From the IMG/VR virus record IMGVR_UViG_2924263452_000001, positions 1-64,000 of that record: a DNA stretch of 64,000 bases; one strand, 5' to 3'. The stretch comes from a virus (Duplodnaviria; Caudoviricetes). Positions 21,964-48,929 of this stretch are shown here, one piece after another. The position numbers were made by a program, and so were the translations under genes. The stretch's first letter is position 1. The number at the start of each line of letters is the position of its first letter. Below the pieces are notes generated by a model. That model made no database searches. It saw nothing but the letters and a program-made list of their open reading frames with translations, and was not told where the DNA came from.

Positions 21964-22599
21964 TTAATTTTTACATATATCTGCAATATGCAGACATAAC
22001 TTTTCTGGAATTACGCTACGTTCCACTGCACCCTTTAATCCCTGTGTTCCAGTTTTACTTCCTCTTGGAGCTGGTTGGTGACAAGAATCGCCATTATGAC
22101 ACATTGGCTTGAATTGCGGATCTGGATGATTAGTCCATATATCCGTAGGCTTCATTCTGGTATCTCCATACTGGCAATATGTAATTGTGTATCGTGGCAA
22201 ATTCTTCATAAATGCCATTTTCCGCAAGCCACCTCTAGGATTTTCAATAAACCAATATTTCGGTTGCAACTCACGAATAAGTTCGATTGTATGCTGCACA
22301 AGATTGTCTGACAGCTTCGCAAAATCACTTACTGGATCTAAATTCCCAGTAATGGGATTTTTCTTCCGATGATGTGAAATCGCTGCTATTGAATAACTTG
22401 TACATGGTGGACTCGCCCAGATTACATCCGGCTTGCCAAACTTATCAATAATATCTTTGGCTGTCACTTCCATAATATCAGCATACCAATCAATGTTTTT
22501 ATGTTGTTTGTCTAATTCGATTGTAAAAGTCTCATAACCACGTTGGTTAAAGGCTTTCGCAATGCTACGTGTTCCACTGAATAAATCTACACACTTCAT
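21964..22599 (-). CDS. Short C5-cytosine DNA methyltransferase (invertible 5' end in ON orientation)
   Basis: DLFSG, WASPPC, IENP. Confidence 0.85.
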   Translation of the reverse strand: MKCVDLFSGTRSIAKAFNQRGYETFTIELDKQHKNIDWYADIMEVTAKDIIDKFGKPDVIWASPPCTSYSIAAISHHRKKNPITGNLDPVSDFAKLSDNLVQHTIELIRELQPKYWFIENPRGGLRKMAFMKNLPRYTITYCQYGDTRMKPTDIWTNHPDPQFKPMCHNGDSCHQPAPRGSKTGTQGLKGAVERSVIPEKLCLHIADICKN

Positions 22600-22671
22600 T
22601 TTTATAATGTCTCCTTTTCAAATACCTATGGTTGTGGGATTTCAGAGTGCCAAATCAAAACATTGTTTTAT
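22485..22671. other. Putative invertible segment 1 (spacer ACATTG), ON
   Basis: ATAAAA-ACATTG-ATTGGT (minus, 22485-22502) and ATCAAA-ACATTG-TTTTAT (plus, 22654-22671). Confidence 0.7.
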
Positions 22672-23239
22672 CCCTATAATTCCTCAAGTTCTTTTTCTAA
22701 TTTTGCGATAGTATCAGTTATCCAGTTCTTCCAACATTCTCTTGTAGAATCTGATACTCCACAATTCAATACTTGATTTTTTAGTGCCTTAATATCAAAT
22801 TCAATCTCTTTCGCTCTTTCAAATTGTTCTTTTGTCATGTTACCTCCACTACATTGAATACTCTGGATAGAAGTCATATAAATAGTCTCTGAAGCCTATT
22901 TCTTCATCTGTAATACTGTGATTTTTCCTGCACTCTAACCAAGCTTTTCCGGCTTTTGTTTCAAGAAATCTTTCATATTTAGGCAGTAGTTTTGCCATAT
23001 TCTTTTCTTTTTCTGTCATTACGCCATAAAATATCCTTTCCCTAAATTATGTATAAATTCAGACTCTCTCCAAATCATTTCACGCTGTTCTAAGCGACCA
23101 TAACACTCTGACAAAAGTTTTACTTTAAACACATTTTCTTCAGCAGTAAAATGCGGATCTGTTTTTTGCATGGATTCTACATACGCATCTGTCACATCTT
23201 CTGTGGATTCAATCTGTATAATCAGGTGTTTTAATAGGT

Positions 23240-23554
23240 TCATGTGCTAGCCTCCGTCCTATTACTCTGTTTCACTCCATTTAAGAACTTTCTGACAGGT
23301 TGCAGACCGCTGAAAATATCTTTTGCCCTGTTTTCTTCTTGCCGCTTGAATTTTTCAACTTCTCCCACATCATTTTCAGTAGGACGATAATATCCAGATC
23401 CATTCTGAATATTTACAATTACTTCTCTTTTTCTGGCAGCATTGATAAGATCACGCATTGTTCTGTCAGAACATCCGACTTTCATTGCCAATTCTGCCCT
23501 TCCGATAGCGTTCTCCCTTCCAAACGGAATATATTTTACAATGTCAACTTCCAT
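23240..23554 (-). CDS. Putative HTH protein
   Basis: RAELAMKVGCSDRTMR helix-turn-helix-like segment. Confidence 0.55.
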   Translation of the reverse strand: MEVDIVKYIPFGRENAIGRAELAMKVGCSDRTMRDLINAARKREVIVNIQNGSGYYRPTENDVGEVEKFKRQEENRAKDIFSGLQPVRKFLNGVKQSNRTEAST

Positions 23555-23604
23555 TTATATTACCTCGTATATTTATTCTCTACTACTTATTTAAGTAATA
23601 TGTA

Positions 23605-24357
23605 TTATACAAGTTTCTCGACAGACTGCCGGTGTTCGGAAATTCTCTTCTCCATAGCTCTACAATACTTCTCTTCGGACTCCATCGCAATGTAATTCCG
23701 GCTTGTATTGATTGCAGCTATACAGGTAGTTCCACTTCCAGCACAGCTATCAAGAACTGTATCACCTTTGTTTGTGTAGGACTTAATAAGCCACTCACAC
23801 AATTCAACTGGTTTTTCTGTTGGGTGCGTTACAACTGAAGGATGTGGTTTCTGGAATCTTAGAATACTTGTGGGGTGCTTCCATTCTCCTAGTTCTTCTC
23901 GATTATCCACAAACTCATATTTTCCATAATTATTGTTGTCACACGCTTTCTTCTTTCCTTTGCTATGGTTCATTGCTCCCAGAACTTTTTGAGGATTATA
24001 CACTGGTGGCTTCTTATAAAAGATACATACCTCTTCATGTACTCTCAAAGGCTGTCTATTCGCATTAAGAAATCCAGTGGAAAGTACCTTATCCCACACA
24101 AGATTGTACTTCCATAATTTTTCCTGGCTTTTCATCAGATCAGCCATAAACATTCCATCTGCGAAAATTGCAATACAACCATTAGGTTTAATGATTCTCA
24201 AATACTGTTCCCACATTTTATCAAGTGGAATAATTGAGTCCCATTTATTATGTGTTCGCTCATATGGAGGATCTACCAGAATCATGTCAACACTTTCATC
24301 TGGAATATCCTTCATAAGCTCTAAGCAATCTCCTTTATATACTTTGTTTAATTCCAT
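23605..24357 (-). CDS. N4C/N6A DNA methyltransferase, beta class
   Basis: DPPY, HPTEKP, DSCAGSGTT. Confidence 0.92.
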   Translation of the reverse strand: MELNKVYKGDCLELMKDIPDESVDMILVDPPYERTHNKWDSIIPLDKMWEQYLRIIKPNGCIAIFADGMFMADLMKSQEKLWKYNLVWDKVLSTGFLNANRQPLRVHEEVCIFYKKPPVYNPQKVLGAMNHSKGKKKACDNNNYGKYEFVDNREELGEWKHPTSILRFQKPHPSVVTHPTEKPVELCEWLIKSYTNKGDTVLDSCAGSGTTCIAAINTSRNYIAMESEEKYCRAMEKRISEHRQSVEKLV

Positions 24358-24363
24358 TTCTGC

Positions 24364-24498
24364 TCCTAATGATAGTTTTATTCAAGAGCGATGGTTGTCG
24401 TATTTCAGGCTTCAAAACATTGTATTAAGTGATTGCCTTAATTTTAAAAGTACGTGTTCATCGTGGTTTCAAGCCACTAGATGAAACTATCATTTTAT
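24364..24498. other. Putative invertible segment 2 (spacer CTATCA), directly upstream of the MTase RBS
   Basis: ATAAAA-CTATCA-TTAGGA (minus, 24364-24381) and ATGAAA-CTATCA-TTTTAT (plus, 24481-24498). Confidence 0.75.
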
Positions 24499-25123
24499 TA
24501 ATTATTTATTTCTTTTTTCTTTCTTAAAAATCTTCCAAAAATTTCTTTTTTAAATATTCTACAAATCTACTATCACATTTTGACTTACTTTTATTGTGTA
24601 TCAATTTCTCTACAACTTCCGGAACGTCAGTTATTGTTCCTTTCCATACAACTTCATTTCTATCCTTTGAATAGATTTCCATTGTACCGTCAAATTTTCG
24701 CATCACATTGCAGCCATTATATTTTTTCATGGAGTCCAGGCAAAAATCAACATTATAAAAATATAGTATATCAATTTCTATCGAATCCCACGACTCCCAT
24801 GTAAATATATCAACACCGCAAAACGTTTCTGTCGGTCTTATTTGTTCCATATTTTTTCTTCTTCAATCTTCGTTCATTTTTTCTTTTCATTCTCTTATAT
24901 TCTCTCTTTATCTTTTTCCGTTCCTTACGAAATTCTCTACTATACTTCATAAGAATATTAAATACAATATAAGTATTAGTTTGCTGCGCTTTTTCCGGTA
25001 ACGGATCATAGTCATCAACAAGAAGATAATCAAACAAAAAGTCAAGTGCTTTTTCTGAACTCATTGGTGGATTAAAAATCCCGTAATCAGGTTGTTTTCT
25101 CAGCCATTCTGTAAATGTTTCTT

Positions 25124-25351
25124 TCATTTATTTTTTCTTTCTGTAAAATAAATTGTCACGGAGCAGCCATCACTTGTATCTTCCTTTGTATATCTGTCGT
25201 ATTTGTAATCATTTCCAATACCAATATCTAAATTATCTTCTCCCCACTCAGAACGATACACTGATATTTGAGGATATGATTCTCCGCATCCAGTTAACAT
25301 AAAAACAGATGCAAGAACGCATCCTGCCAGTAACAAAACTTTCTTTTTCAT
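25124..25351 (-). CDS. Small lipoprotein
   Basis: Signal peptide with LTGC lipobox. Confidence 0.7.
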   Translation of the reverse strand: MKKKVLLLAGCVLASVFMLTGCGESYPQISVYRSEWGEDNLDIGIGNDYKYDRYTKEDTSDGCSVTIYFTERKNK

Positions 25352-25962
25352 TATTTAGACCTCTCTATCTTTATTAAAGCTACACACTGTTCGTATGCTA
25401 TTCCCCAATTTATTGCTTCTCTTCCCTTCTCATCAAAGATCTGGAGATATGCCCGATACATCATCTTTGCAATAATGTCTGGCTCTACTCTACCAACAGA
25501 ACCACCAAATGCCGGAATAACCACAGATTTACAATTATTATTGAGTGCTTCCATAAGTGTCGTCCTCATACACTGATATATAATTGTTGGATCTTTTATT
25601 TCTGATGGTGTTCGCATTGTTGGTGTATGTATCAGCCGAATATTACGACGTGGGATTTTAAAAGAAATACTTGTTCCCACAGGTTGTTCTCCATACAATT
25701 CTTGAACAATCTTTTTCTGTACCATCAACTGTAATTCATTACCGAAATACTTAGTAAGTGCGCCATCATATCCGCCATCCATTAAACCGTAGGAATTTGC
25801 AGGAGAAACTACTGCATCAATATCTGACTCATGTTTTTCCATAAAAGTCTCGAAATCACTCCATACAAATTTTACAGGGGCAACTTCATCGAATATCGGA
25901 TGGAAGTGTCTCTTCCATGCGTCTATCATATTTTTGTTAAAATCTAACAAGCATATGTCCAT
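25351..25962 (-). CDS. Macrodomain protein
   Basis: VSPANSYGLMDGG.D, PTMR, IPAFG. Confidence 0.88.
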   Translation of the reverse strand: MDICLLDFNKNMIDAWKRHFHPIFDEVAPVKFVWSDFETFMEKHESDIDAVVSPANSYGLMDGGYDGALTKYFGNELQLMVQKKIVQELYGEQPVGTSISFKIPRRNIRLIHTPTMRTPSEIKDPTIIYQCMRTTLMEALNNNCKSVVIPAFGGSVGRVEPDIIAKMMYRAYLQIFDEKGREAINWGIAYEQCVALIKIERSK

Positions 25963-26270
25963 TATTATATTCTACCTTTCCATTTAAAAATATCTGCTAA
26001 TAATAGCAAGCACAATATTCACAATAGTATCAATGACATTCTTATATTCACCTAAGAAGTTGTCAAGTTTGTACATGAATAGTTTCATTTTTGTTTTCAT
26101 GCTCTACCTCCATATTTATGTAAAAAAGTAAAAAACAAAACACCTGTTCCTTGAAAAAATTTCCAATAAATGTTAATATTGGTGGAGGTAGTACGGTTGG
26201 TAAGAACATTGTGCATGTAGTTTAAGAAGTTATGCGTAATGTAGCACTGCCAACCTGAATCCTTTTTCTT

Positions 26271-26320
26271 AGAACAAGTGTTTGTATGTGTATTATACAA
26301 AACAAGTGTTCTGATGTCAA
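26271..26320 (-). promoter_or_regulatory. sigmaA promoter with two LexA (Cheo)-box-like sites
   Basis: TTGACA-N17-TATAAT; AGAACAAGTGTTTG (26271-26284) and AAAACAAGTGTTCT (26299-26312). Confidence 0.65.
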
Positions 26321-26400
26321 CTCTTTTATAAAATACTAATTTTAAGTATTATTCCATAGTTTCTAATGTTACAATTTGTTTTCATTTTATACCTCCTGTT

Positions 26401-26517
26401 TTACAATAACTTCTTGTCATATTTATTTAGTTTTTCTATAATCAAGTCATTTGGTAATATATTCTTACAAAAATATGCTGTTGCAAATGGACTTCCCTCT
26501 ATTGCCAAATTCATATT
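26401..26517 (-). pseudogene. Disconnected C-terminus of the adenine MTase
   Basis: Minus frame NMNLAIEGSPFATAYFCKNILPNDLIIEKLNKYDKKLL*; joins the plus-strand ORF in frame on inversion. Confidence 0.85.
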
Positions 26518-26982
26518 TTAACAAGGCGAGAGGAAGATAATGGCTAACAACATAGGATATTTAACAAGTAAACTTACTCCAGAACATCAGGAAATGTATA
26601 CCCCATATTATGCTGTTGAACCAATTGTAAAATATATCCCAAAACAATATAAAATCTGGTGTCCTTTTGATAAAGAATGGTCTGCATTCTATCAAACTTT
26701 CAAAAATCTTGGCTATAATGTAGTCAAATCACACATAGACGACGGGAAAGACTTCTTTATATATGAGCCGAATGAATACGACATAATAGTTTCTAATCCA
26801 CCATTCAGTATTAAAGACAAAATACTTGAACGGTTGTACGAATTAGGTAAACCATTTGCCGTATTGCTGCCATTAAATTCATTACAAGGGAAGTCAAGAT
26901 ACAAATTTTTCTCAAAAGGTGTCCAGCTTTTATCATTCGACCAGAGAATAGGTTTTCATAATAGATCAAATATGAATTTCGT
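26504..26982. other. Putative invertible segment 3 (spacer TATGAA), OFF
   Basis: Perfect 12-bp inverted repeat AAATATGAATTT at 26507-26518 and 26968-26979. Confidence 0.9.
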
Positions 26983-26992
26983 CTACATCTAA
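26540..26992 (+). CDS. Inverted N-terminal part of an NPPF-type adenine DNA methyltransferase
   Basis: YTP, WCPFD, NPPF; the only credible plus-strand ORF in the window; truncated at the inverted repeat. Confidence 0.85.
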   Translation: MANNIGYLTSKLTPEHQEMYTPYYAVEPIVKYIPKQYKIWCPFDKEWSAFYQTFKNLGYNVVKSHIDDGKDFFIYEPNEYDIIVSNPPFSIKDKILERLYELGKPFAVLLPLNSLQGKSRYKFFSKGVQLLSFDQRIGFHNRSNMNFVYI

Positions 26993-27253
26993 CTTTTCTA
27001 ATGTCCAACAGCCGCACATGGTTTTTAACCAATCTTCTGCCTGTTCTTTTGATGAATAAATCCCTCTAAGAAGTGATGCAGTTGTCAAATTCAACCATCT
27101 GTATCTAAGAGCAACCCCATTTACCGACCACTTATCTACAACCAGCATAATAAGAAACTCTTCTTTGTCAGTATATAAGCGTGGAATTTCTAACTGTTTC
27201 ACTTTGTATATATCCCCAACATGAATATTATTTACTTTCTTCAAATTTTTCAC
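26966..27253 (-). CDS. Hypothetical protein whose C-terminus changes with inversion
   Basis: Ends DEIHI* now and DEIHILTRREEDNG* when flipped. Confidence 0.65.
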   Translation of the reverse strand: MKNLKKVNNIHVGDIYKVKQLEIPRLYTDKEEFLIMLVVDKWSVNGVALRYRWLNLTTASLLRGIYSSKEQAEDWLKTMCGCWTLEKLDVDEIHI

Positions 27254-27941
27254 CTATACTTTCAACTTCCCAGTCTCTATTTCTTGTAGCCCATGTGATT
27301 GCTTCTTCTCTTGTAGAAAATACCTTTCCTGAAATCGTCCCGCTTGATAGGTTTACCCATCTGTATGTATTATCTATCATTGGAATCTCTGATTTATCAT
27401 TCACTAAAAAGAACCAAAAATCATCAGTATCTTCCCAATTTGTCGCATTATGCTCTGTAACCAAAAAGAGATTCTTAAATTGTTTTCCAAGTATTTCTTT
27501 GATATCCGGCAAATCCTCTGAATATAAATTCAGTTCTCCTGTAATTAAGTCAATCTTTTCTATTTCCATAGGTTTAAATGCAATTACCGCCCACTGTGGA
27601 ATATCTAAAAATTCTGTTGACTCGTCCACGACATTAAAGAAATCCTGTCTGTTGACCATTCTGCGTTCATGTGCTTTTTTAATGATTTCTTTCATAGCTT
27701 CATCATTTTCTACTTCAAGTACAATTTTGGTAAAACTGCCACTAATCCACCGAGCGAAAAGTTCTTTGTCAACTCTCGCATTTGGGCTGATTGTGTAATC
27801 ATTGTTAGTCTCATTTAAAGCAGCAACATTTCTTTTAAACCATTCACAGAAGAAAGCTGTAGCCCCATGTGCCACCATAGCCCCAAGTTTTCCAGGACTC
27901 ATATTTAAGCTTTTATTTACTACAATAACCTGTTTATACAT
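27228..27941 (-). CDS. Pth2-type peptidyl-tRNA hydrolase with an extra C-terminal domain
   Basis: KQVIVV...MSPGKLGAMVAHG, TKIVL. Confidence 0.75.
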   Translation of the reverse strand: MYKQVIVVNKSLNMSPGKLGAMVAHGATAFFCEWFKRNVAALNETNNDYTISPNARVDKELFARWISGSFTKIVLEVENDEAMKEIIKKAHERRMVNRQDFFNVVDESTEFLDIPQWAVIAFKPMEIEKIDLITGELNLYSEDLPDIKEILGKQFKNLFLVTEHNATNWEDTDDFWFFLVNDKSEIPMIDNTYRWVNLSSGTISGKVFSTREEAITWATRNRDWEVESIGEKFEESK

Positions 27942-28551
27942 TTATGTTTCCTTTTCAATATTTTTATAATATTCAGTGTTTCTACATTCTTTTTGCTTGT
28001 CCTTCAAGTTTTGCTCTGCCTTTTCAAGTTCCTCTCTGAGTGTCTGCAATTCTTCTGTAATCGCCGGATTTACCTCTTTTCGCTCTGTGTATCTGAACAT
28101 CTCGTTGGTTGTGTTAAATGCCACTGCCAGAGATCTTGCAAATCGTTCCACATTTTCATAGCTTTTAATCTGCTTTTTCAGTGATTTAACTGCAAGCCGT
28201 TCTGAGATACAGTAACTATTTATGTATCGGCGTTTTCTTTTGGCGATTTCATTTTTACGCTGTTTCTCTTGCTCTCCTTTCCACAGGCAATCTTCATATT
28301 CTTCCCTTGCTGCAATACTTGCATAAACTGAAGAAATGTAATCTTCCACATCTTCCTCTCCGTCCCATCCAGCACACGGAGGTTCAATAGGAGTCCCATC
28401 AGCCCCAGAAGTCCAACCACCGGGGCAAAGCCCTTCATCTTTTAAAGGACATTCATCGCAATCTTCTATTTCATATAATTTCATTTCTTGTTTCCTAATA
28501 TATTTTATTTATTTATTTTATCTTACGGCAAAAATTTACATTTATTTCCTG

Positions 28552-29433
28552 TCAGTTGATCTGGATTATTTGTTCATAAAGCAATATATCTTTTCCACCA
28601 GGAATCACCATATTTTCATGATAGTGTCCAAAAAACCATTTTTTATAGTTTACACTTTGTTTTATATGCTCAAAGTATTCATTGAGTTCATCTCTCTCAT
28701 TTGTTCTTAAAATCATAGTCTTATCAGATGACGGGCAATCGTGTGAAAAGATAAAGTCAACCTTATTGTTTTCTGTTGCCAATGTTTCAATGCCTTTTTC
28801 CATTTCTACTTGATTTGGCATTTCCTGTTCCCACCATGAAACATGATTTATGCGGAAAAATTTTCCTTCATGATTCCACCTATCAGCTTCTTTGTTCATT
28901 AATTTTTTATTTTCAAATTTATCAGGTTGTAAAATTCCACCACTAATATCGTGACTTCTTGCTCCACCAAAGGAAAAACATTTACAACCATCAATGTCAA
29001 ACACATACCCACGTTCCAGCATTAATATAGATGGGCGGATTTCACGAACTATACCGCCATGCCATTCTTTTTGTGGATATCCATTCAGAATTTTTCTTTT
29101 TTCGCTTTCTTCCAAGTCTTTGAAAATCCATGTGTTTATGAAGTTCTTATCACTTAAACCAGTTAGGCGATCATAGTTCTCATGGTTTCCAGGAACAAAA
29201 AGTGTTGTAAAATTGCGGGAATTAAGCCAATTAAGGTCATAAATTTCTTTCTTAGTTTCTCCAGCATAATTCCATACACCACCAAAGTCGCCACAAATAA
29301 CAACATAATCATCTTTGTTCAAATGCTTTTGTTCCGGAAATGACTCCATGTTCAAACGATTAATAAAACCATCAACACTATGAGATCCAAGTTTATCAGC
29401 ACCATGAGTATCGCCAGTTATATAAATAGACAC
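28552..29433 (-). CDS. Metallophosphoesterase
   Basis: GDTHG, GDFG, GNHE, GHYH. Confidence 0.9.
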   Translation of the reverse strand: MSIYITGDTHGADKLGSHSVDGFINRLNMESFPEQKHLNKDDYVVICGDFGGVWNYAGETKKEIYDLNWLNSRNFTTLFVPGNHENYDRLTGLSDKNFINTWIFKDLEESEKRKILNGYPQKEWHGGIVREIRPSILMLERGYVFDIDGCKCFSFGGARSHDISGGILQPDKFENKKLMNKEADRWNHEGKFFRINHVSWWEQEMPNQVEMEKGIETLATENNKVDFIFSHDCPSSDKTMILRTNERDELNEYFEHIKQSVNYKKWFFGHYHENMVIPGGKDILLYEQIIQIN

Positions 29434-30722
29434 AAGTATTTCTCCTTCCGATATTTTTATAATATACGGTTTTCAATATTTTTCCGCTTCTCTTCTAAAT
29501 ACTATTTTGTACTTATATCTTTTATTTGTCAATAAAATTAAAACTCCATGCGCATTATTAAATTTTCAACATCTCTTTTTACTGCTAATTCGGCAGCTTT
29601 ATGTCTCGCTCCAATATCTCCAATAGTTTCCTGATAATCAGTGTTTAGCTTTTCTAATTCATTGATTGCTGCTTTATACTCATTAATCTGGGCGTTATTA
29701 TCTGCAATAATACTCTGGTATGATTTCTTCTCTTCTTCGGTTTGTTTCTGGGCTTCGGCAAGTTCAGCCTTATGCTCTTCCATCCTTTTCAAAATACCAC
29801 TAATGAAGGTTTTATTAAATTCTTCATCAAGACCGAGATTTACCTTATAAACAGTAATGACTGTCTTATCCAGGATATCTGTAAGAATAACCCATGTACC
29901 AGAAAGATATACATTTACCGGACGTTCTTCGCGTTGTCCGACTCTTCCGGTATAAATGCGATTTCCAAAGTGAATCATTGTGTTTATATCTTCTGTAATT
30001 TTATCCTTGTTCAATTGAACGTATGTATTCACGTCAATGGTAGTTTCACGGTTTGCAATTCTTTTTGCATATCTCTCCATTGCATGATTTGTAATTGATA
30101 ACTGCTCCATTTTTACTACGTTTCCCTTTCTTTTTTATTTGAATCTGCAATTCTAATTGTTTCTTTGCAAAATCCAATGATTTGATCTTTAATAATTTCA
30201 AAATTTTCCGATGTCATTTCTTTTAATGTATTTACTACTTTAGTAGCATTTACCTTACATCCGAATATAATACCTCTATCATATCCTTCTTTGACAAGTA
30301 GCTTCAGCTCCTTGTCATCAAGTAAAATTTTATCATTTATTCTTTTCATATGTTTATCCTATATTTATTTCTTTTATCTTCTCTTTATATATTATACGTT
30401 TTTTCTTACTTTGTCAAGTCTTTTTTTGTAATTTATTATTTCTTTTATCTTAGTTTTAAAAAATCCACCCTTGTCAAACAAGGATGGATATTATTATTTT
30501 GACTTCCACTTTTCGCACCTGTCTGTAGGACATGTTTCATAAATACGCTCTGCTTCTTCTAGGAACACAGTACAGCAACCGTATTCTTTCTTACTTACAA
30601 TATCATTTTTTATTCCTACTTTCCAACCACAAACAGCTCCGTGACTGCCAATTGTCGCGACATATCTCTGGAACAATTTTAACGTTGAAAAGTATTTGCA
30701 GTTTTTACAACGCTCTTCATTA

Positions 30723-31148
30723 TCATTCATCTTTTATTACCATCCAGTCATTTCTTGCGATACAACCAAACGTGTACTCTGTATTTTTAGTATCTCGAAT
30801 ATCAAGTTCTTTGCCATTTTCACAATGGATCATAATTGTTTTACGATCATCAGACCAATACCAATATCCGTTCCACTCTGGCAATTTAATTTTCTTTCCT
30901 TTTTTGAGGTGGTCGTATGCTTCATTAAACTCCATACTATCCCACGCCAGACAGCTTCCATTGTGAGATAACATATCTTCAATGGTATGTCGCATTTTCA
31001 TACAGGCACAAGCTTCTGCGTTATGAATCTGCATAGCCATTATACTTCCCTCTTCCATAGCTTTCACAGAAAGTTCTGTCCGAAGATCTTCTTCTTTATT
31101 TACAAATTCTAATAATTTCTCAAGTTTTTCTTTTGCCGAAAGTGCCAT
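30723..31148 (-). CDS. DUF2829-like (Tad2-related) domain protein
   Basis: MEFNEA...LKKGKKI...WNG...DW pattern. Confidence 0.5.
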   Translation of the reverse strand: MALSAKEKLEKLLEFVNKEEDLRTELSVKAMEEGSIMAMQIHNAEACACMKMRHTIEDMLSHNGSCLAWDSMEFNEAYDHLKKGKKIKLPEWNGYWYWSDDRKTIMIHCENGKELDIRDTKNTEYTFGCIARNDWMVIKDE

Positions 31149-31158
31149 AATCTTCCTC

Positions 31159-32256: not shown

Positions 32257-32269
32257 TGTTGGATATCTC

Positions 32270-35934: not shown

Positions 35935-36293
35935 TTATTTTCCTCCTATAATTGCTTTTAAACACCAGTTCCACCCACATTTAAAACTTGGCAAACGATC
36001 TCCCCAACGGAATGTTTCTTTTATCTCTTTGTGTTCTGGTAGAGGTCTTAATGGACAATGTTCTGAAACTGATTCACAATCTTTTCCAGTTATATACTTT
36101 CCAATTACAGGACAATATACTGACACTTCTGATACACTATGATCTGTGGCAATAGGACACATCCAACATGATTCCGGTGTATCTATTACCAATACCGATT
36201 TATTCATCTGATTCCTCCCGTAATAATTCTGATTGATCGAAAATATTTCCAATCACTTCAACCCGCTTTGCCTTGAAAAGAATTTCTCTCATA

Positions 36294-39819: not shown

Positions 39820-39976
39820 TTACTGGCTTTCTTTTTATTAACAACTATATAACCAAGTGCATATCCGTGAGTTCCGGCACACAATGTAGGGGAAAGCCCC
39901 CCCATGTTCTATAAATTGTTCCAGCTTGTGAATTACCAGTTGAAAGATTTCCAACTTTGAGCACCTTCTTATTCAT
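39820..39976 (-). pseudogene. Free-standing MTase target-recognition module E, out of frame at G7
   Basis: MNKKVLKVGNLSTGNSQAGTIYRTWG / LSPTLCAGTHGYALGYI; in frame with G5 or G8 (C-run 39897-39903). Confidence 0.7.
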
Positions 39977-40143
39977 GTTTTCTCCTGACGATTATTTTCG
40001 GCTGTCTTTGCCCCCCCCATCATCGTTGAAAGAGTAGGTGCTAATCCTTCTATAGAATAAATTCTTTTGATTATGTCAAGACCTTTTATATCTAATCGTC
40101 CTAATACCTTTATTTTTGGTTGTTGATTAATTGATTTCTTCAT
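39969..40143 (-). pseudogene. Free-standing MTase target-recognition module D, out of frame at G8
   Basis: RIYSIEGLAPTLSTMMGG / QRQPKII; in frame with G7 (C-run 40011-40018). Confidence 0.7.
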
Positions 40144-40536
40144 ACAATCTATCCAATCCTTTTTCAAACGCTCCGATACCAGAGAAAAAGCTACTTACCT
40201 TTAAATCTTTGAAAAGATACGGCATTGCCTGATAAAGATTTTTATAAATGTGATACAGAACTCCCACACAAATAGAATTTCCTGCCTGCTTGTAGAGCTG
40301 TGTGTCTGACATTCCAGCTTCTTTGGCTTTATCAAAATCTTCATCTGAAAAATCCATCAATCTCCAACATTCTCTTGGTGTCAAACGGCGAATACCATAA
40401 TCTTCAATATTTACATCATTTTCCACAATCACTCTTTTATCTCCTCCTGCATTAATCGTCCGGATAGTGCCAAAAAGCCCCCCTTGAACGTTCTCATTCC
40501 TTCATCGCATCTTCGTTCACAAATATATCTGTTCAT
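40127..40536 (-). CDS. Small subunit of the split, permuted C5-MTase (motifs IX, X, I) with a G6-gated N-terminal module
   Basis: RRLTPRECWRLM, QAGNS, C-terminal FFSGIGAFEKG; internal GGAGG+GTG start at 40432; upstream ATG 40536 in frame only with G7 (C-run 40478-40483). Confidence 0.8.
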
Positions 40537-40537
40537 A

Positions 40538-41494
40538 CTATTCCCTTCTGGTTGGTTTCTGTATAATCACCGCATTCATACTCTGTTTGCCAAATCCTTT
40601 ATAATCTCTTGCCATAAGTGTATTTGCACAATTGGTTATATGATTTACATGGTTTGCATAATCACTTACAATTACTCCTTGACGATATTTTTCGTCTGTA
40701 TCAGATCCCACATGTGGCGATCTAATGAACAGCCCCCCCATGTCTGATTGTATGAGAATAGGATCTATACAGTTTTCCACTGTCAATCATTTCCTGTAAT
40801 GCCTTTTTCTCTTTGGCTGAATCAACGTAATATTTATCTGGCACGTTTTCTTCATTCTCAAGAATATCGTACATTGTTATGTCACTTTCAAACCCATCTG
40901 GAAGGTTGAAATTGCCGTTATCAAGTTCTTTTCTGATGATTACAAGATATAATCGTTCTCTGTTCTGTGGAATACCAAAATCTTTGGCATTCAGAACTTT
41001 CCAGTAAGTGTTATATCCATATTCGTGAAGCTCTTCGATAAACATATCGAATGTGTTTCTGAAAGATTTTCCTACAATATTTTTTACATTCTCATAAATT
41101 CCCCAGGCTGGCTTATTTGCTCGAACAACACGCAGCCATTCAACCAACAGAGAAGAACGTGTCTTATCAAGGTTTTCGCTCCCACAATTAGGACACTTAT
41201 CTCTTTTTGACCAATGAACTGTCAAAGGGTTATATGTAAATGGCTCTCCGTCATCACCTGTACAATCTTTACAAGTCCATCCACTACCAGCTTTCTTTCC
41301 AGCAATACTGAAATCTTGGCATGGCGATCCCCCACAAATCATATTGAATGGTAACATGCTGTTTTCATCAACTTTCGTAATATCTCCAATGTTAAGGTTT
41401 GGATCAACTCCATGAATAGCACAATATGAAGTTGCGGCAAACTTATCAACTTCGCAAAAATTTACCAGTTTCCAACTTTGAATTAATTTTTCAT
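40538..41494 (-). CDS. Large subunit of the split C5-MTase (motifs II-VIII); start codon lies in an inverted segment, C-terminus set by a G tract
   Basis: FCEVDK, GDI, GGSPCQDFS, ENV, PQNRER; C-run 40733-40739. Confidence 0.85.
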
Positions 41495-41652
41495 TGTAAA
41501 ACTATTGTAGAAAAGTGCTGATTTAGTGGCATTTATACTATATTTTGTATGCTATATGTATATGTTGACACTAAATATAGCGTTTATTGCCACTAAAAAT
41601 CAGGTAAAAGAGGTATAAAAATTGGAAAATAACGATAAAAAATTAATTTAAT
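41477..41652. other. Putative invertible segment 4 (spacer AATTAA), OFF
   Basis: ATGAAA-AATTAA-TTCAAA (minus, 41477-41494) and ATAAAA-AATTAA-TTTAAT (plus, 41635-41652); AAGAGGT RBS and TTG (41622) on the plus strand. Confidence 0.85.
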
Positions 41653-41819
41653 CTATTTTTGCCACATTTCATTAATAACCATTGCAGCAGATATTCCAAG
41701 TAAAGCCCAAAACTTCGGGGTATTAGGCTTTGCGTCTGCTACTGTTGTAAGTGCCGCAAATAACACACCATATATCAGGCTTCCAATAATTGTTGTTTTC
41801 ATTTATTTATTTCATCTTT

Positions 41820-42062
41820 CTACAGCATTTCCGGATGTTCGTTGAACATCTGTAAGAATTTCTTTTCGTCATTTTTATTAGAACACCAAAGTTCCAACTC
41901 ATCGCCGTGTTCGCCCACAAGTGCTGCAATCGCTACATATTGTGTTAAAGTAGATTTGAGATTATACTTATCTCCATATACAGAAGTCAGTGTTACTTCA
42001 CCTTCGCACTCATTTACTACTTTTAAAAATGTTTCAACGTCTTTTACGTTTTTGATTTTCAT
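41820..42062 (-). CDS. HPr-fold-like small protein
   Basis: Weak HPr-like pattern (YNLKSTL). Confidence 0.5.
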   Translation of the reverse strand: MKIKNVKDVETFLKVVNECEGEVTLTSVYGDKYNLKSTLTQYVAIAALVGEHGDELELWCSNKNDEKKFLQMFNEHPEML

Positions 42063-42249
42063 TTACTTTTCCTTTCTTCTCTTTCAATTTCTGTCAATCT
42101 CTCTTGTGTTCCGCCAAATTCGTAACACTTACATGGTTCATTATCAACAGATACATCTTTTCCGTATTTCTTTCCGAAACATCTTCCAAGCCATTCTTTT
42201 CTACATAGTTGGCAGTTATGCTTATTTTGTTCTGGCGTAATATGCATCA

Positions 42250-42990
42250 TTATCCTCCTATTAATTGGCTCTCATTTTCCTTCAATACAAGCTGACAAGC
42301 AATTCCGCAATCTTCCATGACTTCTAAATCCATACGCCCACGTTTAGGATCAAGTTTATCTAGGAACACTCCCTTAATGCAGCTATGCCCTATTTCCCTT
42401 TCCTGTCTTGCCCTACGTTCGAACACCTCTGGGAAATCTACTCTAATCTTATTCCAATATCCCATACCGCCTTTTACGCATCCAATACAGTTATTATTTG
42501 GATATCCAAGATCATACATAACTGGACGTTTTAATCCCAGTTCTTTTGCAAGTGCATGACAATCTTCTTTTGTGAATCCATTTTCGATTAACGGAAATTC
42601 ATGGTCGTAGTCTGTCATAGTATTTACCAATCTGTCAGCTCTACGCTTTTCATTTAAGTCATATCCCCATACATAAGTATGGTGGTCAAAGTTTTGTGCT
42701 TCCCATTTCTTTCTTACTTCTTTCTTCAAAAATTTTGTACAAGGTGCGCCATACGGAGTATTGATGCAACGTGTTTTTTCAATAACATCATCTACTGACG
42801 CATATCTTTCAGACTGTAATATGGTTATTTTTCTTCCTAATAATTTCTCGCAATCATGCAGAAAGCGTAAACTATCTGGATGCTGATTCGGAACGTGAGT
42901 ATAAATAAGCTCATCAATATCCTTTGATAAATAACATGCTACAAAACTTGAAATTCCTGTACTAAACCAACAAACTTTCACACCAGCCAC
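42250..42990 (-). CDS. PAPS-reductase / adenine nucleotide alpha hydrolase family protein
   Basis: WFSTGISS PP-loop variant, APCTKFLKKE, NNNCIGCVKG; start may be the GTG at 42981. Confidence 0.75.
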   Translation of the reverse strand: MAGVKVCWFSTGISSFVACYLSKDIDELIYTHVPNQHPDSLRFLHDCEKLLGRKITILQSERYASVDDVIEKTRCINTPYGAPCTKFLKKEVRKKWEAQNFDHHTYVWGYDLNEKRRADRLVNTMTDYDHEFPLIENGFTKEDCHALAKELGLKRPVMYDLGYPNNNCIGCVKGGMGYWNKIRVDFPEVFERRARQEREIGHSCIKGVFLDKLDPKRGRMDLEVMEDCGIACQLVLKENESQLIGG

Positions 42991-43185
42991 TAACCGAATC
43001 CGGTGAATGGCAATTTTGTGGATTGCTATGTTTCGTACAAGCCTTACGTTTAGGTTTTACTTTACTTGTACTTTAGTTCAAACAAATTATGAACTGTTAG
43101 CCACGATCAGAAATTTTCCGGGCGTATATCTCTTTTCTCCAACACCCAACCTAGTTTCACTAGGATAAGGTGTTACTCCCTTCTT
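42985..43185 (-). promoter_or_regulatory. Structured 5' leader, candidate cis-regulatory RNA
   Basis: Several hairpins, e.g. AACACC..CCTAGT-GAA-ACTAGG..GGTGTT and GTACAAG..CTTGTAC. Confidence 0.45.
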
Positions 43186-43225
43186 TTTTATTGTTATTTA
43201 TTTTATTCATCTTTTATTAAACCTT

Positions 43226-43956
43226 TCATCCCCACTGATCCGCCATTGCTTTGGCGATTCCTGGGAATGTTTTACTTCTTGCTTTTGCTCTCCCGGCTTG
43301 ACCACCAGTTGTATTTTTGATTCCCTCACACCAACCAATCCTTTTGCCTTTGCATTTTTTACCTTGGCAAATATATTGTGGCTCTGGAACTGGCAAATTA
43401 TTTTTTCTGTCAAGCACTGGAAGATTTTTAAGCCATAAACATGTTCTCTTCTGGAAATAATTCTCCGCATCATTCTTGTTACTAGCAAAATAATACGGAT
43501 GAACAATTTGATTTGGCTTTCTCCAATGTGTATTCATATACCCCACTGGATTTTCAATTGCAATTTTCTCACAATCTGCATTTGCTATTTTTAAGAAAAA
43601 TTGTTCTGCCTCATTTCTTTTTTCTATTCTAGCGGCTACTTTTTCTGGTGGATTACACTTTAATGAGTAATGCCGTGTTCCTGCAGATGTAAGATATGTA
43701 CATGGTGGAAATGCAATTATTATATCCCATTTCCCGTCTATCTTATGTTTGATTCCATCTGTTGTCTCGAACTCACAATTTCCGTTCAACAAAGGAATAA
43801 CATCTCCCATAACGTGCCATTCTGGATGATTACCAGAACATTCAATTATGTCACAGCTATATGCTTCATGTCCTTTATTTCTAAACTCAATACATACTCT
43901 TTGTGATTCTTCACACGCCACTAATATTTTTAATCTATGTTGAAAACAACTTTCAT
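43226..43956 (-). CDS. Phage C5-cytosine MTase-like protein; true start lies in an inverted segment
   Basis: KILVACEESQ, AFPPC, ENPVG, RSKTFPGIAKAMADQW. Confidence 0.8.
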
Positions 43957-44095
43957 TTTATAGTTTAAAAATACGATGGTTGTCGTATTAGAAATCAGAT
44001 ATGAAAGAGTTTCTTCCTATTATATATAGAAACAGAATTGTGAAAGGACGATTAGAACGTGAGTTCAGAGACAGTAGATAAAAGTTGTTTTTTAT
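43939..44095. other. Putative invertible segment 5 (spacer GTTGTT), OFF
   Basis: ATGAAA-GTTGTT-TTCAAC (minus, 43939-43956) and ATAAAA-GTTGTT-TTTTAT (plus, 44078-44095); GAAAGGA RBS and GTG (44059) on the plus strand. Confidence 0.88.
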
Positions 44096-44647
44096 CCTAC
44101 TTCATGCTCTTTTAACCATTTCTTGAATACTTCTATATCCGGCTCCCAGAAATAACAATCTTCTGGTTTGCCGAAAACAACGCATGTAATTTTTCCATCA
44201 ATGATGCAATTTTCGTGATGTGAGCAGTTTTCACAACATTTTTTAAATCTGCATCTTGATTCAGTTGTCGGATAACGTTCTAAGAGATAGTCCAATTTAT
44301 TCAAATCCCTGTTTATCTCTTCAACTCTCCGCTTTATGATGTTTTGCTGCTGATCCAAAGTTCTTTTATGTAACTGCAAAACTTCATATTCTCTTGCTTC
44401 TTTTTCATCAAGAAATATTGAATTACCAAGCTCTACCAGCTTATGAGAAACATTTGTTTTAAATCCCCATACTCTTACATTTCCGAAAAATTCAACATTT
44501 CTAATTTTACAAGCTGTAACTCCTTGTCGTGGAAAAATATGAAATGCATCCATTCCAACAATTTCTTCGAGTGAATTTATATTATGTTTCTGTAAATATT
44601 CACATACTTTTTCATATCCACTACCAAGCTGGATCATCTTTTCCTCC

Positions 44648-45007
44648 TTATAGATTGAGTTCTTCCAGTAATGGCAGAATCTTATCTTCCATTTCTGGGA
44701 ACAATTTATATAATGTTTGCCGGGCTGTCATAGGCTTATCTGGTTTCGTGAACCTACAGCACTCCCAGTCAATAATCATCTGAATATAATCCGCTTTTGT
44801 TCGCGCTCTTATAGGATGATGTCTGGAATATTTTCTGTGAAATTTAGAGACTTTTTTCTCCCAGCTTTTCGGAGTCACCAAATATATAAAAACTTTATCA
44901 AGGTCATGCAAAAATCCTCGAACAGTATTATGACCAAGCAATTCCTTTTCCACTCTGAGAAATGCTCTCTTATGTTTCATCGTATATACAATGTGACTTC
45001 TATTCAT
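44648..45007 (-). CDS. HD-like protein (DUF5662-like)
   Basis: HDLDK, HR..SRHH, MIIDW. Confidence 0.6.
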   Translation of the reverse strand: MNRSHIVYTMKHKRAFLRVEKELLGHNTVRGFLHDLDKVFIYLVTPKSWEKKVSKFHRKYSRHHPIRARTKADYIQMIIDWECCRFTKPDKPMTARQTLYKLFPEMEDKILPLLEELNL

Positions 45008-45795
45008 TCTCAGCTTCTTCTCTTTTCATTCCAATAACTACTAATGCATTTTCAATCACTGCTTTAAATTCATCAAGATCAAGCATTGTTCTTCTCAGAT
45101 TTTCCTTCAAATCCAGGCTAGAATCCAACCAAGCAACAAGATATTCTGATAATCCAGTGGCAGAATAACCTTCCACTTCAAGATCATTGTCAATTGTAAT
45201 GGCTGCTTTATTATTGTTTACTGGATGAAGTAATCCGTCATAACCGACAATAATTTTATCTCCGGCTTTTATCTGCAGAGTATTTTCTTTGTTTACATAC
45301 TCTCTGTCGCGATTTGCCATCAGAATGCTTCCTCTTGATACTTTTAAAGCATCTGTAGTTCCATCAACACTTTTCATCTTTTACCTCTTTTTCGTTATTA
45401 AATTCTTCCTCTTGCGAGTCCATAGAAAGAACTTTTTGTGCATCTCTATGTTTCCAATTCACTGTAGAACCATAAAATCCACGATTGTTTGTACGTCGTC
45501 TGGCTTTTGAATGATAAATAGGGATTTTCCCTTTTATATATTGCCCGTCACATTTAACACGTAATCGCTTGCCATTCTTTGCGTCATTCACTCCAATGTC
45601 CGTTGCGGTACGTTTTTTCTTTCGTGCTTTAGAAAAATTTTTCTTTCTTCGCCATCCAATAGTTCTCTCCATAAGCTTTCTCCTATCTGATTTGCTATAC
45701 TTCGCGCATTCTTTGCACTGCCAAATCATAATATTTTTGTTTCAATTCAACACCAACATGTCATATTATATAATTTGTTGTATATTTATTTCTTT

Positions 45796-46652
45796 TTACT
45801 TGATATAATCAATTAACATCTCATCTTTGGCTTTTTGATAAAATGTTCGGTCAATTTCAAATCCGTATGAACTTCTTCCTAACTCACAAGCTGCTCTCAA
45901 TGTGCTTCCGCTTCCGCAACAAGGATCAATCACAACATCGCCAGGATCGGTAAATGTTTCAATCAGTCTCTTCAATAGTGCAACTGGTTTCTGTGCAGGG
46001 TGAATCTTTGGTATTTCTTTTGTATCTTTTTCCCATGTGAACCAGTTAAATATCATATGTCCAGTCCCTCTGATTGTTTTTCCGTTCTCATCATATTGTG
46101 CGCCATTACGGAATTTAGGAAGTCTGTCTCTATATAAAAGTAATGCATATTCTGTAGCCCCTACAACTCTCATATTTGCTTTCAACACCTGTGGGCTATA
46201 ATTCTTAACAAACACAAGTGGTATGTAATGAACAAATCCGTGTTTCGCTGCTGCATTAATAAGTGTCTGAATTTGTTCAAATGAACAAAACACGATCATA
46301 CAAGGTGAATCACTACTTCTCCCACGAATAGATTTCTTTTTATCCTCTTTCTTTAACATTTTTGAACAAAAATGGAAATATTCGTAGAGATTAAAGTTAA
46401 AATCTGAATTAAACGCCGACTTTCCAGCTAACTTGCTTTCTCCGTTTTTGTTATCTCCACCTTTATACCACATAGGATTTGAACCATAAAAATTATTTCC
46501 CACATTATACGGCACATCTGCTATAATAAGTTGTGCGGGACGAATACCATACTTTTTATAATTCTGCATTGAGTCACGAAAAATTTCACATTTTATTCTC
46601 GGCTCAATTGTCCCCCCGTGTAAGATTGATTAGTCTCAAGATTATTCAACTC
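45796..46652 (-). CDS. N6A/N4C DNA methyltransferase, frameshifted at a G6 tract near the 5' end
   Basis: DVPY, HPAQKP, DPCCGSGST; AAGGAG+TTG start in frame only with G7 or G4 (C-run 46612-46617). Confidence 0.85.
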
Positions 46653-46735
46653 TTTTTCTCCTTTGGTTGCATATTTATTTAGTTTATCTTATATATAAGA
46701 AATACTGACTGGGTTTTCCCACTCAGCTTTCTTAT

Positions 46736-46783
46736 ATAATATCATATTAAGTTGTATGTGTCAATATTTATTTCGTTTATCTT
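46736..46783 (-). promoter_or_regulatory. sigmaA-like promoter upstream of the MTase cluster
   Basis: TTGACA-N17-TATTAT plus the repeated upstream motif. Confidence 0.6.
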
Positions 46784-47783
46784 ATGTGCAATAAATCTTA
46801 TTTAACTTTTCTATAATTGCTATTTCTTCCTGTCGCTTTTCTTCTTCAAATTCTTCTTTAAAGGAATCGCGCCACTTTTTCATCTCACCTGTATTTTCTG
46901 GATCAATCCATTGTGAGATAATCTTTGCAATGTCATCACCACATTTTTCCCGTACAATATCAATAACATGTCGTTTATTTCCTACGGTATCAATTTGCCC
47001 ATCTGGTAATTGTACTAAATCCATTTCTTCTTCCTTTTCACAGTTCTTCTTTAAATAATAACGTGTCGCGTCTTGTGGATTTTCAATACCATTGTAATTT
47101 TCTATAATATATTTTCCCTTAATGCCTCTCTTTGTTACTGGTACAATTTTATTGCAAAATAAATTATAATCTATCCCTTTTTGAATATATGACTCTGTTA
47201 ATGCCATTGATCTGCTAGTACAATTAACATTAAAGAATCTAATCGACGTTCCATCTGTTAATATAATTTTTAATTGATTTCTATAAATGCGGAATAAACA
47301 ATATCTTGGATAACTGTCTAAAATTTTTTCAAATAATAGTTTCGCCCATTTTATATCGTAATACCAAATACCGATATTTCTTGCGAAATTATTCATCCTT
47401 TATACTTTCCTCCAATTGCCATATAAGTCATTTGGCTATAACTCTTATGTACAATTTATTTTACAAACTCTGCTGTTCCATCTTTATAACTCTTTAGTTT
47501 CCAACCTTTGCTATTAAACCACTTTTGTTTATACCCATACCTTTTTATCCATTTTTTATTTATTCTCTTTTTCTTATGCTTTTTCGCTTGTACAGTTTTT
47601 AAATATTGGATAGTGTATGAATCTGGTTTTCCTGAAATATCCACACCAAAGATTTTCAATAATTTATCTATATTAATACCTTTATCTGGTTCTAATGTGA
47701 ATGAACTCTCAACCATATCGAACCTTTTTACACATTTTTCTTCCATTTGCATAAATTATTTCTTTGTCACCTTTCAAAATATA

Positions 47784-48733
47784 TTACTCAACTTCTACCC
47801 CTATATAATCCATTACATGTCTTATTCCTAATCCGCCATTTTCAATAGGTTTCATACAATAATTCCAAAGTTTCGGATGCGTCTTTTTGAGCATTTGGAA
47901 ACGATTTGGTTCTTTTTCAAGATGACAACCAAACCCGCACCAGACGCAGCCACTTCTTCTCACTCCTGTTGTATGATATTTTCCATCTTCAAACACAATA
48001 TCACCATAAACTGAAGCATATGGAATTTTCTTAGTGTACAAATATTCAAGTACATCCTGCTCAGTCCAGAATCCCATAGGCTGACTCTGTGGACGTTTTT
48101 TATTAAAGGCGTTACATCCAGTTTTCATGTAGTCATTTTTCCTTTTATGACTTTCTTCTGCCATTAAGCCTAAAATTGGATGCTTACCTGTTTCTTTTTC
48201 ATACTCTAATGATGGTTTCTTTTTCATGATCGTACAACACTTATCAGAAATCAAGAAATCTGCATCAAGCAAATATTCATACTTCTTAAAATTATACTGA
48301 GTAGAAAGCTCGCCCGTTTTAGGATTTATGTACTCTCCGTGTAATTGCTGCCATCTGGTATTCCCAGGCTTCGCATAATGGACTTTGTTCGCCACCTCTT
48401 TGCTGATTACCGGATAGCCGTATTTTTGCACAACCTTTTTAAAATTTTCCTTTGGTCGTAGCCATGTGACATTATCAATAGTTTTTACAAATTCACGAAG
48501 TTCCGGATATTCTAAGCCAGTGTCAGTATATACAGCTTCAATGTCAGGATATATCTTTCTTGCTATATCAAGTAATACTGTACTGTCTTTACCACCGGAA
48601 AAAGCCACATAAACCTCTCCGCCATAAAACTCATACCATTCACGTATACGATTTTCAGTCTTTTTTATTTTCAGTTCAAGGGGAAGTGTCTGCAGTATCT
48701 TAAGACTTTCTTCCGTGTAAATTCTGTTTTTAT
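47784..48733 (-). CDS. PAPS-reductase family protein; true start lies in an inverted segment
   Basis: FSGGKDS, DTGLEY, CC..MKKKP, RSGCVWC; frame is open upstream of 48608 but has no start codon. Confidence 0.85.
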
Positions 48734-48872
48734 TATGGACTCTGGAAAGCCTTAACTACGGCATTCCAGAATTGTACATAATAAACAAACAGTTAGTAAT
48801 ATAAGAACAATTATAAAAGGAATAGCATATTTATGGGAAAAATTGAAATAAACAATAAAAACAGAATTTTAT
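48716..48872. other. Putative invertible segment 6 (spacer ACAGAA), OFF
   Basis: Perfect 16-bp inverted repeat AATAAAAACAGAATTT at 48719-48734 and 48854-48869; RBS and ATG (48833) on the plus strand. Confidence 0.9.
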
Positions 48873-48882
48873 TTAGTTTTAA

Positions 48883-48929
48883 TATCTATATATTGTGTCT
48901 GTGATATTTTCAAGCACCATATATTGTGT
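48883..48929. promoter_or_regulatory. Tandem NrdR-box-like palindromes
   Basis: TATCTATATATTGTGT (48883) and GCACCATATATTGTGT (48914), 31 bp apart. Confidence 0.6.

Follow-up and report, generated by a model that had tools for sequence, protein, structure and literature searches.

The DNA considered here, called the window throughout, is a stretch of 64,000 nucleotides at the beginning of an IMG/VR virus contig of 127,362 bp (G000). It holds six DNA-modification loci, named L1 to L6, which are very probably gated by short invertible segments (invertons) bounded by sites of a tyrosine-recombinase family. G000 has 34% G+C, carries almost all its genes on the minus strand and was rated 75% complete by CheckV. 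A close relative, G002, has 170,884 bp and was rated 100% complete, and the window is part of such a phage, with a genome size of about 170 kb. Public runs with window sequence came from pig-gut, faecal and wastewater metagenomes. A genome-collection scan with a recombinase query returned a single 2.7-kb contig, belonging to a metagenome-assembled genome (MAG) of an uncultured Clostridia, and no integrated prophage form was found in that scan. A megablast search against 50,697 phage records gave only one match, of 333 bp. The strong Shine-Dalgarno sequences suggest a Firmicutes host.

The original prediction had placed six pairs of inverted sites in the window, each in the 5′ part of a gene for DNA modification, five of them DNA methyltransferases (MTases) and one PAPS-reductase-like. 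All six pairs were found at the positions given there, and the gene assignments agreed with Pfam and PHROG matches. The segments, with their gene-proximal and gene-distal sites, and the genes that they precede are as follows.

22485–22671, minus strand: inverton L1, proximal site 22485–22502, distal site 22654–22671, spacer ACATTG
21964–22599, minus strand: L1 gene, 211-amino-acid C5-MTase-like protein, intact in the window orientation
24364–24498, minus strand: inverton L2, sites 24364–24381 and 24481–24498, spacer CTATCA
23605–24357, minus strand: L2 gene, 250-amino-acid N6/N4 DNA MTase (Pfam PF01555, 1e-31)
26504–26982, plus strand: inverton L3, sites 26504–26521 and 26965–26982, spacer TATGAA
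26401–26507, minus strand: 3′ piece of the L3 gene, last ~35 codons and stop
41477–41652, minus strand: inverton L4, sites 41477–41494 and 41635–41652, spacer AATTAA
40127–41476, minus strand: L4 gene, circularly permuted C5 MTase in two reading frames, 40722–41476 and 40127–40432
43939–44095, minus strand: inverton L5, sites 43939–43956 and 44078–44095, spacer GTTGTT
43226–43938, minus strand: L5 gene body, DNA MTase (PHROG 757, 3e-54)
48716–48872, minus strand: inverton L6, sites 48716–48733 and 48855–48872, 16-nt perfect repeat, spacer ACAGAA
47784–48715, minus strand: L6 gene body, PAPS-reductase family with the PP-loop motif SGGKDS (Pfam PF01507, 7e-20; PHROG 424)

The invertible segments are about 100–460 bp long, and those of L1, L3, L4, L5 and L6 carry a ribosome-binding site (RBS), a start codon and 0–141 N-terminal codons. 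At these five loci the gene is complete in one orientation of the segment and lacks its start or is split in the other, so that five of the six inversions make or break the reading frame of a DNA-modification gene. The gated genes are stand-alone C5, N6/N4 and EcoRI-like MTases together with the PAPS-reductase-like gene, and none of the six is an hsdS gene. It had also been claimed that at four loci the RBS, start and N-terminus face away from the gene body and that a flip mends the frame exactly, and this proved to be the case for L3, L4, L5 and L6.

The L1 locus appears to be ON in the window, where a flip would break the gene. Its segment holds the RBS, the ATG (22597–22599) and codons 1–32, including motif I, and its proximal site falls within coding sequence. 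The L1 protein aligned with positions 1–113 of the Pfam profile PF00145, in an alignment that spans the junction, and matched PHROG 757 (DNA methyltransferase) with 4e-46. The four loci with facing-away starts are predicted to be OFF in the window. The L3 segment bears, on the plus strand, the RBS, the ATG (26540) and the first ~141 MTase codons, which after the flip form with the 3′ piece a single frame of 181 amino acids. The translation of the 3′ piece carries on the conserved C-terminus of the homologues (G-SFATAYFC motif), and the gene product is an EcoRI-MTase-like, NPPF-motif enzyme. The L4 segment has its RBS at 41606–41613 (AAGAGG) and a TTG start at 41622–41624 on the plus strand, in frame with the gene after the flip. 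The L5 segment has its RBS at 44043–44048 and a GTG start at 44059–44061, also on the plus strand and likewise brought in frame by the flip. Distant homologues of the L5 protein begin with MKILVACEES; the corresponding ATG is here TTA, and the L5 frame, when traced backwards, remains open across the proximal site. No Pfam match was obtained for the L5 gene body. As to L6, the RBS (48815–48821) and the ATG (48833–48835) lie on the plus strand, and the flipped form encodes a 323-amino-acid protein in which 17 residues are added before an N-terminal helix conserved in all homologues; in the unflipped form, the first possible start would remove that helix.

The two reading frames of the L4 gene matched Pfam PF00145 with 6e-44 and 7e-13, and poly-G tracts lie between them. 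The possibility that L4 is a pseudogene, with an N-terminus devoid of motif I, was rejected: motif I (FFSGIGAFE) comes after motifs IX–X, where the second reading frame ends, so this is a circularly permuted MTase, and the short N-terminus that lacks motif I is authentic. Four runs of G6–G8 were observed on the coding strand at 39897–40739, within and after the target-recognition part of this enzyme. Through slipped-strand events they may add another layer of phase variation to this two-frame gene.

Concerning L2, its segment of 99 bp is located in the leader, upstream of an RBS (AGGAG) and of the ATG at 24357, and probably acts on transcription or on the leader RNA. Within this segment, at 24407–24425, there is a remnant copy of the distal site of L1 (22654–22668; TCAAAACATTGT), next to an element with the core ACAACCAT that is shared by L1, L2 and L5. 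From this remnant, L2 seems to have derived from a duplicated L1-type switch end. The shared motif was considered as a promoter or as an upstream open reading frame and was dropped, as its orientation does not follow the ON state consistently; in L5 it is part of a 7-6-7 palindrome, and a further copy occurs near G000 position 126965.

The sites themselves were then compared. The claim that spacers match within pairs and differ between pairs was borne out for all six. The consensus proposed for every site, ATRAAA-N6-TTTTAT, stood for the gene-distal member of each pair, with exact matches at 24481, 44078 and 48855 and near matches at 22654, 26965 and 41635, and failed for the gene-proximal members, where the inner arm, the spacer and TT are retained and coding sequence follows. 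The shared core is the inner arm AT-R/N-AAA, the 6-bp spacer and TT, with 9–16 nt exactly complementary. The full consensus had 8 exact matches in the window, versus 0.34 expected, and none of 100 shuffles reached 8. When pairs were sought as arm plus identical spacer plus TT, with at most one mismatch and the sites 60–700 bp apart, the 127-kb G000 contained five, four of them among the six loci, and motif pairs numbered 4–5 per genome, as compared to a mean of 0.13 in 30 Markov-simulated genomes. Plain inverted repeats of at least 11 nt within 1.5 kb amounted to 94 pairs in G000, so that repeats by themselves are weak evidence.

A sister clade of phages, represented by G018, added five motif-defined pairs. 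These precede an orthologous PAPS-reductase gene, a 191-amino-acid L5-like gene, a permuted C5 MTase, a second PAPS-reductase-family gene and an N6/N4 MTase, and the pairs at the 191-amino-acid gene and at the C5 MTase were found inverted in some sister-clade relatives. The 22 sites of the 11 pairs from both clades were aligned from the segment interior outwards. The inner arm reads A (21/22), T (22/22), any base, AAA (22/22). The distal outer arm conforms to TTT-N-R-T, its dyad partner, in 11/11 pairs, and the proximal outer arm is degenerate and keeps only TT. Each of the 11 pairs has its own 6-bp spacer, the same at both sites and unlike those of the other pairs, and no spacer is palindromic. 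At orthologous loci the spacers differ between clades (ACAGAA/AACATA, AATTAA/AAACAA, CTATCA/TAGTTA and GTTGTT/AAGATT) with the arms unchanged. In Cre/lox, FLP/FRT and Xer recombination, strand exchange requires identity of the spacers of the partner sites, and constant arms with drifting, matched spacers are what such an exchange requires. The tyrosine-recombinase site architecture that had been recognized in the window, with an invariant inner arm (AT-N-AAA) and a matched spacer, thus extends to all 22 sites, and conserved arms around a spacer that may drift, provided that it stays matched, correspond to tyrosine-recombinase site logic.

Two more distant phages were also inspected. G024 (164 kb, 43% G+C) has one convincing pair, a 13-nt inverted repeat with the same ATAAAA arm and a new spacer, ACAATA (sequence L223, 19062–19222), which brackets the start of a permuted C5 MTase in the ON state and was seen in that orientation only. 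A further pair within a kinase/HD gene of G024 is probably due to chance. No motif pairs were found in G025.

Six full dyad sites ATRAAA-N6-TTTTAT without a partner were observed as well, with fewer than one expected, at window positions 6835 and 16244 and at G000 positions 64481, 84790, 101513 and 109979. At 64481, G002 carries a 281-bp insert flanked by the 9-bp direct repeat ATAAAATCA, and at 109979 a gene cassette is swapped between two site-like sequences. These solo sites may be relics or points of cassette exchange, as is suggestive at 64481 and 109979; some of them are simply ATGAAA gene starts.

The original prediction had proposed that orientations be compared in related prophages. 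A comparison was made for ten relatives, phage genomes 87–99% identical to the window, by means of BLAST and 80-nt junction probes, and Logan contigs, which are assemblies from other studies, served as independent public evidence (runs X1, X2, X3 and X4). The segments do invert in nature: each of the six loci was seen in both orientations, and the breakpoints fall within the repeats. With S for the same orientation as the window, I for inverted and a hyphen for absent, the states of L1 to L6 were III-SS in G001, IIIIIS in G002, SISSSS in G003, SISISS in G005, ISISI- in G008, IISSS- in G010 and IIISS- in G011, and ISIS was recorded for both G007 and G009. Between G000 and G002 the five segments of L1 to L5 are the sole inversions over about 125 kb aligned.

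Locus by locus, L1 was inverted in G001, G002 and G007 to G011 and the same in G003 and G005, as seen by BLAST (piece 22488–22668 on the opposite strand) and by the junction probes. L2 was inverted at 100% identity (24368–24494) in G001, G002, G003, G005, G010 and G011 and the same in G007 to G009, and a Logan contig of run X4 has precisely 24368–24494 unaligned. As for L3, seven of 11 close relatives (97–99% protein identity) have the gene contiguous and four have it split like the window, and about 50 more distant homologues are contiguous in every case; a strand-switch joint, 26507/26980, was found in run X1, its 12 shared letters being the repeat itself. L4 was inverted in G002 and G005 among the relatives compared, and the joint 41492/41638, with 11 shared letters that are again the repeat, occurred in runs X1, X2 and X3. 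L5 was inverted in G002 and G008. L6 had the window orientation in all close relatives. In the sister clade, where the PAPS-reductase is ~80% identical and the spacer is AACATA, one locus was ON (genome L010) and ten were OFF; 30 homologous loci that are more distantly related lack a repeat there.

The loci flip independently, as had been supposed: the window and the ten relatives provide at least eight combinations, and all four combinations of states occur for L1/L2 and likewise for L2/L3, which indicates that switching is recurrent. The homoplasy of orientation among genomes so closely related would imply repeated switching, and we infer that the switches are reversible within a clone. The assembled genomes had the gated genes mostly OFF (L6 in 17/18, L4 in 8/10, L5 in 6/8, L1 in 7/10), and these genes were at times deleted or replaced. 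The PAPS-reductase gene, together with the proximal site (window 47802–48811), is deleted in five relatives (G006, G007, G009, G010 and G011), and in G006, G007 and G009 the L5 MTase (window 43310–44063) has been replaced as well, from a break immediately internal to the distal site.

The mechanism that can be proposed is that a tyrosine recombinase acting in trans would pair the distal, near-palindromic site (ATRAAA, 6-bp spacer, TTTTAT) with the proximal half site (inner arm, spacer, TT), exchange strands within the spacer and so flip the segment. As spacers match within pairs only, each locus would flip alone, with no large rearrangement between loci. The flip would toggle a complete gene and a start-less or split gene at L1, L3, L4, L5 and L6, and would work through the leader at L2. 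Its role would be either to vary the methylation of the progeny against restriction and modification-dependent defences or to limit the cost of the methylases.

Several points weigh against switches of this kind. The conserved arms have just 6 bp, less than is usual in half sites of tyrosine recombinases, and those of L1 (ATCAAA) and L3 (TTAAAA) are off consensus. The flip of L2 leaves its RBS and start intact, and in a scan for sigma-70 promoters and terminators around the six loci the counts did not exceed those of shuffled sequences, so that no segment was assigned a promoter. The read-level data were contigs, and the Logan contigs reveal inverted forms, not proportions within a sample. Finally, the two tyrosine recombinases of the phage described below track its backbone and persist in the more distant G024 and G025, so their co-occurrence with the switches does not separate the candidates. 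All in all, we still regard invertible switches built on tyrosine-recombinase sites as highly probable.

The recombinase itself had been expected elsewhere in the phage. Two tyrosine recombinases were found there, besides a large serine recombinase in the window.

G000 97242–97964, minus strand: 240-amino-acid tyrosine recombinase (PF00589, 62 bits vs a cut-off of 27)
Sequence L149, 8221–9258, minus strand: 345-amino-acid Xer/Cre-like tyrosine recombinase, present only in fuller relatives
Window 392–2113, minus strand: large serine recombinase of 573 amino acids (PF00239 and PF07508), CcrB/XisF-like

The gene of the 240-amino-acid protein is outside the window, some 50 kb from the switches. 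Its product, aligned with XerA (5hxy), has the Arg of LRAGD, HSLR (His-x-x-Arg), NH and the tyrosine of RY in register, with only ~50 residues before the catalytic domain. With the FimB/FimE models NF007370 and NF007371 it scored 23.9 and 21.3 bits, versus cut-offs of 221 and 222, which places it outside that family, and it fell far below the Xer family cut-offs. It occurs in 19/20 inverton-bearing relatives and is ~65% identical in the sister clade. On grounds of size and analogy this small, catalytic-domain-only enzyme is favoured, and its chance of being the invertase is put at about even. Slightly short of even stands the fuller proposal that one small phage recombinase operates at least six mutually orthogonal start-codon invertons with 6-bp spacers, re-spaced in at least two clades, such that a burst would contain up to 64 modification patterns as a bet-hedge against classical restriction, for which the mark is needed, and against modification-dependent defences, which penalize it.

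The alternative that survives best accepts the switches as real and ascribes them to the 345-amino-acid recombinase or to a host-encoded enzyme; it is doubtful, though it has to be taken seriously. The 345-amino-acid protein is better conserved between the inverton-bearing clades than the smaller one (78% vs ~65% identity), has an orthologue (50% identical) in G024, the phage with the ATAAAA-arm repeat at the orthologous C5 MTase, and possesses an N-terminal SAM-like core-binding region like classical two-domain recombinases. On the other hand, in size and architecture it would be well suited as a resolvase or integrase of the Cre/Xer type, which the phage needs too; known dedicated invertases are small (the FimB/FimE models have 198–200 positions), like the 240-amino-acid protein, and it is the latter that is present in nearly all the relatives. 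Taken by itself, the 345-amino-acid enzyme is an unlikely invertase, and the host enzyme receives what these two candidates leave.

A second alternative keeps the same mechanism and changes its purpose, which would be the silencing of costly or toxic methylases, or a tuning between lysogenic and lytic states, not the diversification of progeny. It is rather unlikely as a replacement for diversification. Most loci are OFF in most assembled genomes, and the loss or replacement of whole genes in relatives suggests that these are dispensable or costly. Against this, the genome-collection scan, with its one 2.7-kb MAG contig, gave no integrated prophage, and every locus is ON in some genome, L3 in 7/11. 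The two purposes are not mutually exclusive, and the mostly-OFF state together with gene loss fits bet-hedging and cost avoidance alike.

It is very improbable that a serine invertase of the Hin/Gin/Cin/Min type flips the segments. Phages Mu, P1 and p15B use serine invertases, and a serine recombinase is encoded in the window. This protein is nevertheless of the CcrB/XisF type, with 573 amino acids and not the ~190 of an invertase, and it was rejected for this function because it is absent from 15/20 inverton-bearing relatives, including genomes rated 100% and 94% complete and the whole sister clade, and present in five. A matched 6-bp spacer with short dyad arms is also unlike serine-invertase sites, which have a 2-bp crossover core. 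The gene is at the contig end, in a region that does not align to the complete G002 and is probably a variable integration or mobile module.

Least credible of all is the view that inverted repeats present by chance gave rise to assembly errors or to sporadic rearrangements without any programme, which then became fixed in different lineages: short inverted repeats are indeed frequent in the AT-rich G000 (the 94 pairs mentioned above), but the five segments are the only inversions between G000 and G002, a single arm motif is common to all sites, at the 5′ ends of DNA-modification genes and in two clades, the spacers co-vary within pairs, the states are homoplasic, and the repeats (11–16 nt) are shorter than assembly k-mers, with independent assemblies in agreement.

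Other elements were noticed in and around the segments. In 5/11 loci a hairpin or palindrome occurs 8–20 nt inside one segment end, of the form CTGRAA ... TTYCAG with a further stem of 3 bp within it or, in L5, AATACGA-N6-TCGTATT, with z-scores down to -4.8 and with compensatory stem differences between loci. The hairpins and palindromes were located as follows.

Window 48742–48769: hairpin/palindrome
Window 43968–43987: hairpin/palindrome of L5
Sequence L201, 7925–7962: hairpin/palindrome
Sequence L202, 3209–3238: hairpin/palindrome

The hairpin was rejected as a terminator, given that no U-tract follows it; it may be a site for an accessory factor. Outside the window, at G000 87687–88810, an 11-mer recurs at a spacing of ~61 bp, or double that, over about 1.1 kb.

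As regards known systems, recombination between variant lox or FRT sites needs spacer identity, and different spacers give orthogonal pairs. Those variants were engineered, whereas the orthogonal set of the phages is apparently natural, with its 11 spacers in two clades. In the sfx sites of the Rci shufflon, one arm is conserved and the other degenerate, and the proximal sites of the phage resemble them in having one good arm. Phage-encoded inversion that yields heterogeneous progeny is represented by the G segment of Mu with Gin, the C segment of P1 with Cin and Min of p15B. They differ in using small serine invertases and an enhancer, in acting on tail-fibre (host-range) genes, and in comprising one locus or, in p15B, a clustered shufflon, in contrast to the dispersed DNA-modification genes found here. 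The fimS element of E. coli, with FimB/FimE, shares a small tyrosine recombinase of catalytic-domain type, short inverted repeats and ON/OFF switching, but is a single promoter switch with adjacent recombinase genes.

The closest likeness, in the way of working only, is the multi-switch phase variation run by RecV in C. difficile (flgB, cwpV, cmrRST, pdcB and others; PMC7446863, PMC8844915, PMC9286219). There, one tyrosine recombinase encoded elsewhere serves a number of short switches, which have individual inverted repeats and are each placed on the 5′ side of the target gene or operon, and some of the switches act in the leader after transcription initiation, which is a possible model for L2. 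That system is bacterial and chromosomal and has surface and signalling targets, whereas the phage set acts on DNA-modification genes; and its switches are in leaders or promoters, while the phage segments carry the start codon and N-terminal codons.

In terms of mechanistic class, five of the phage elements are partial intergenic invertons, in the sense of Milman et al. (PMC9881135) and Chanin et al. (bioRxiv 10.1101/2023.03.11.532203), and one is intergenic. The invertons of gut bacteria described in these two works were likewise found through orientation comparison, and in those of the partial intergenic or intragenic kind the segment overlaps the 5′ coding part and gives two coding states. 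DNA MTase and restriction-modification genes are enriched among inverton targets in bacteria (PMC9881135, Table 1). The gut invertons are bacterial and many are domain-swapping shufflons, unlike the six ON/OFF switches of one site family considered here. The epigenetic hsdS invertons, such as SpnD39III of S. pneumoniae with PsrA/CreX (PMC4948785, PMC7096588, PMC7672463), also alter the methylation of a population through tyrosine-recombinase inversions; they shuffle the target-recognition domains of one enzyme, whereas the phage toggles separate orphan MTases.

The original prediction knew of no equivalent in phages, and a full-text literature search indeed brought up no set of MTase-gene switches carried by a phage. 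Bacterial switchboards are known, and we found none described for a phage in the literature searched; one paper of 2026 merely proposes that viral invertons may exist (PMC13501310).

These findings have a practical side for annotation, as the gated genes mostly look truncated or split in any single assembly; for four of the six, gene calling on the window would miss the true start or, for L3, yield two pieces. If the spacer rule is true, the sites would also offer a ready orthogonal family, with common arms and 11 spacers, for one small recombinase. Concerning the biology of the phages, their orphan methylases are usually seen as fixed anti-restriction equipment, and here they are apparently phase-varied gene by gene. 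If this is true, phage populations would be epigenetically heterogeneous by design, which would matter for host range, for the arms race of restriction systems and modification-dependent defences, and for the linking of phages to hosts by methylation in metagenomes.

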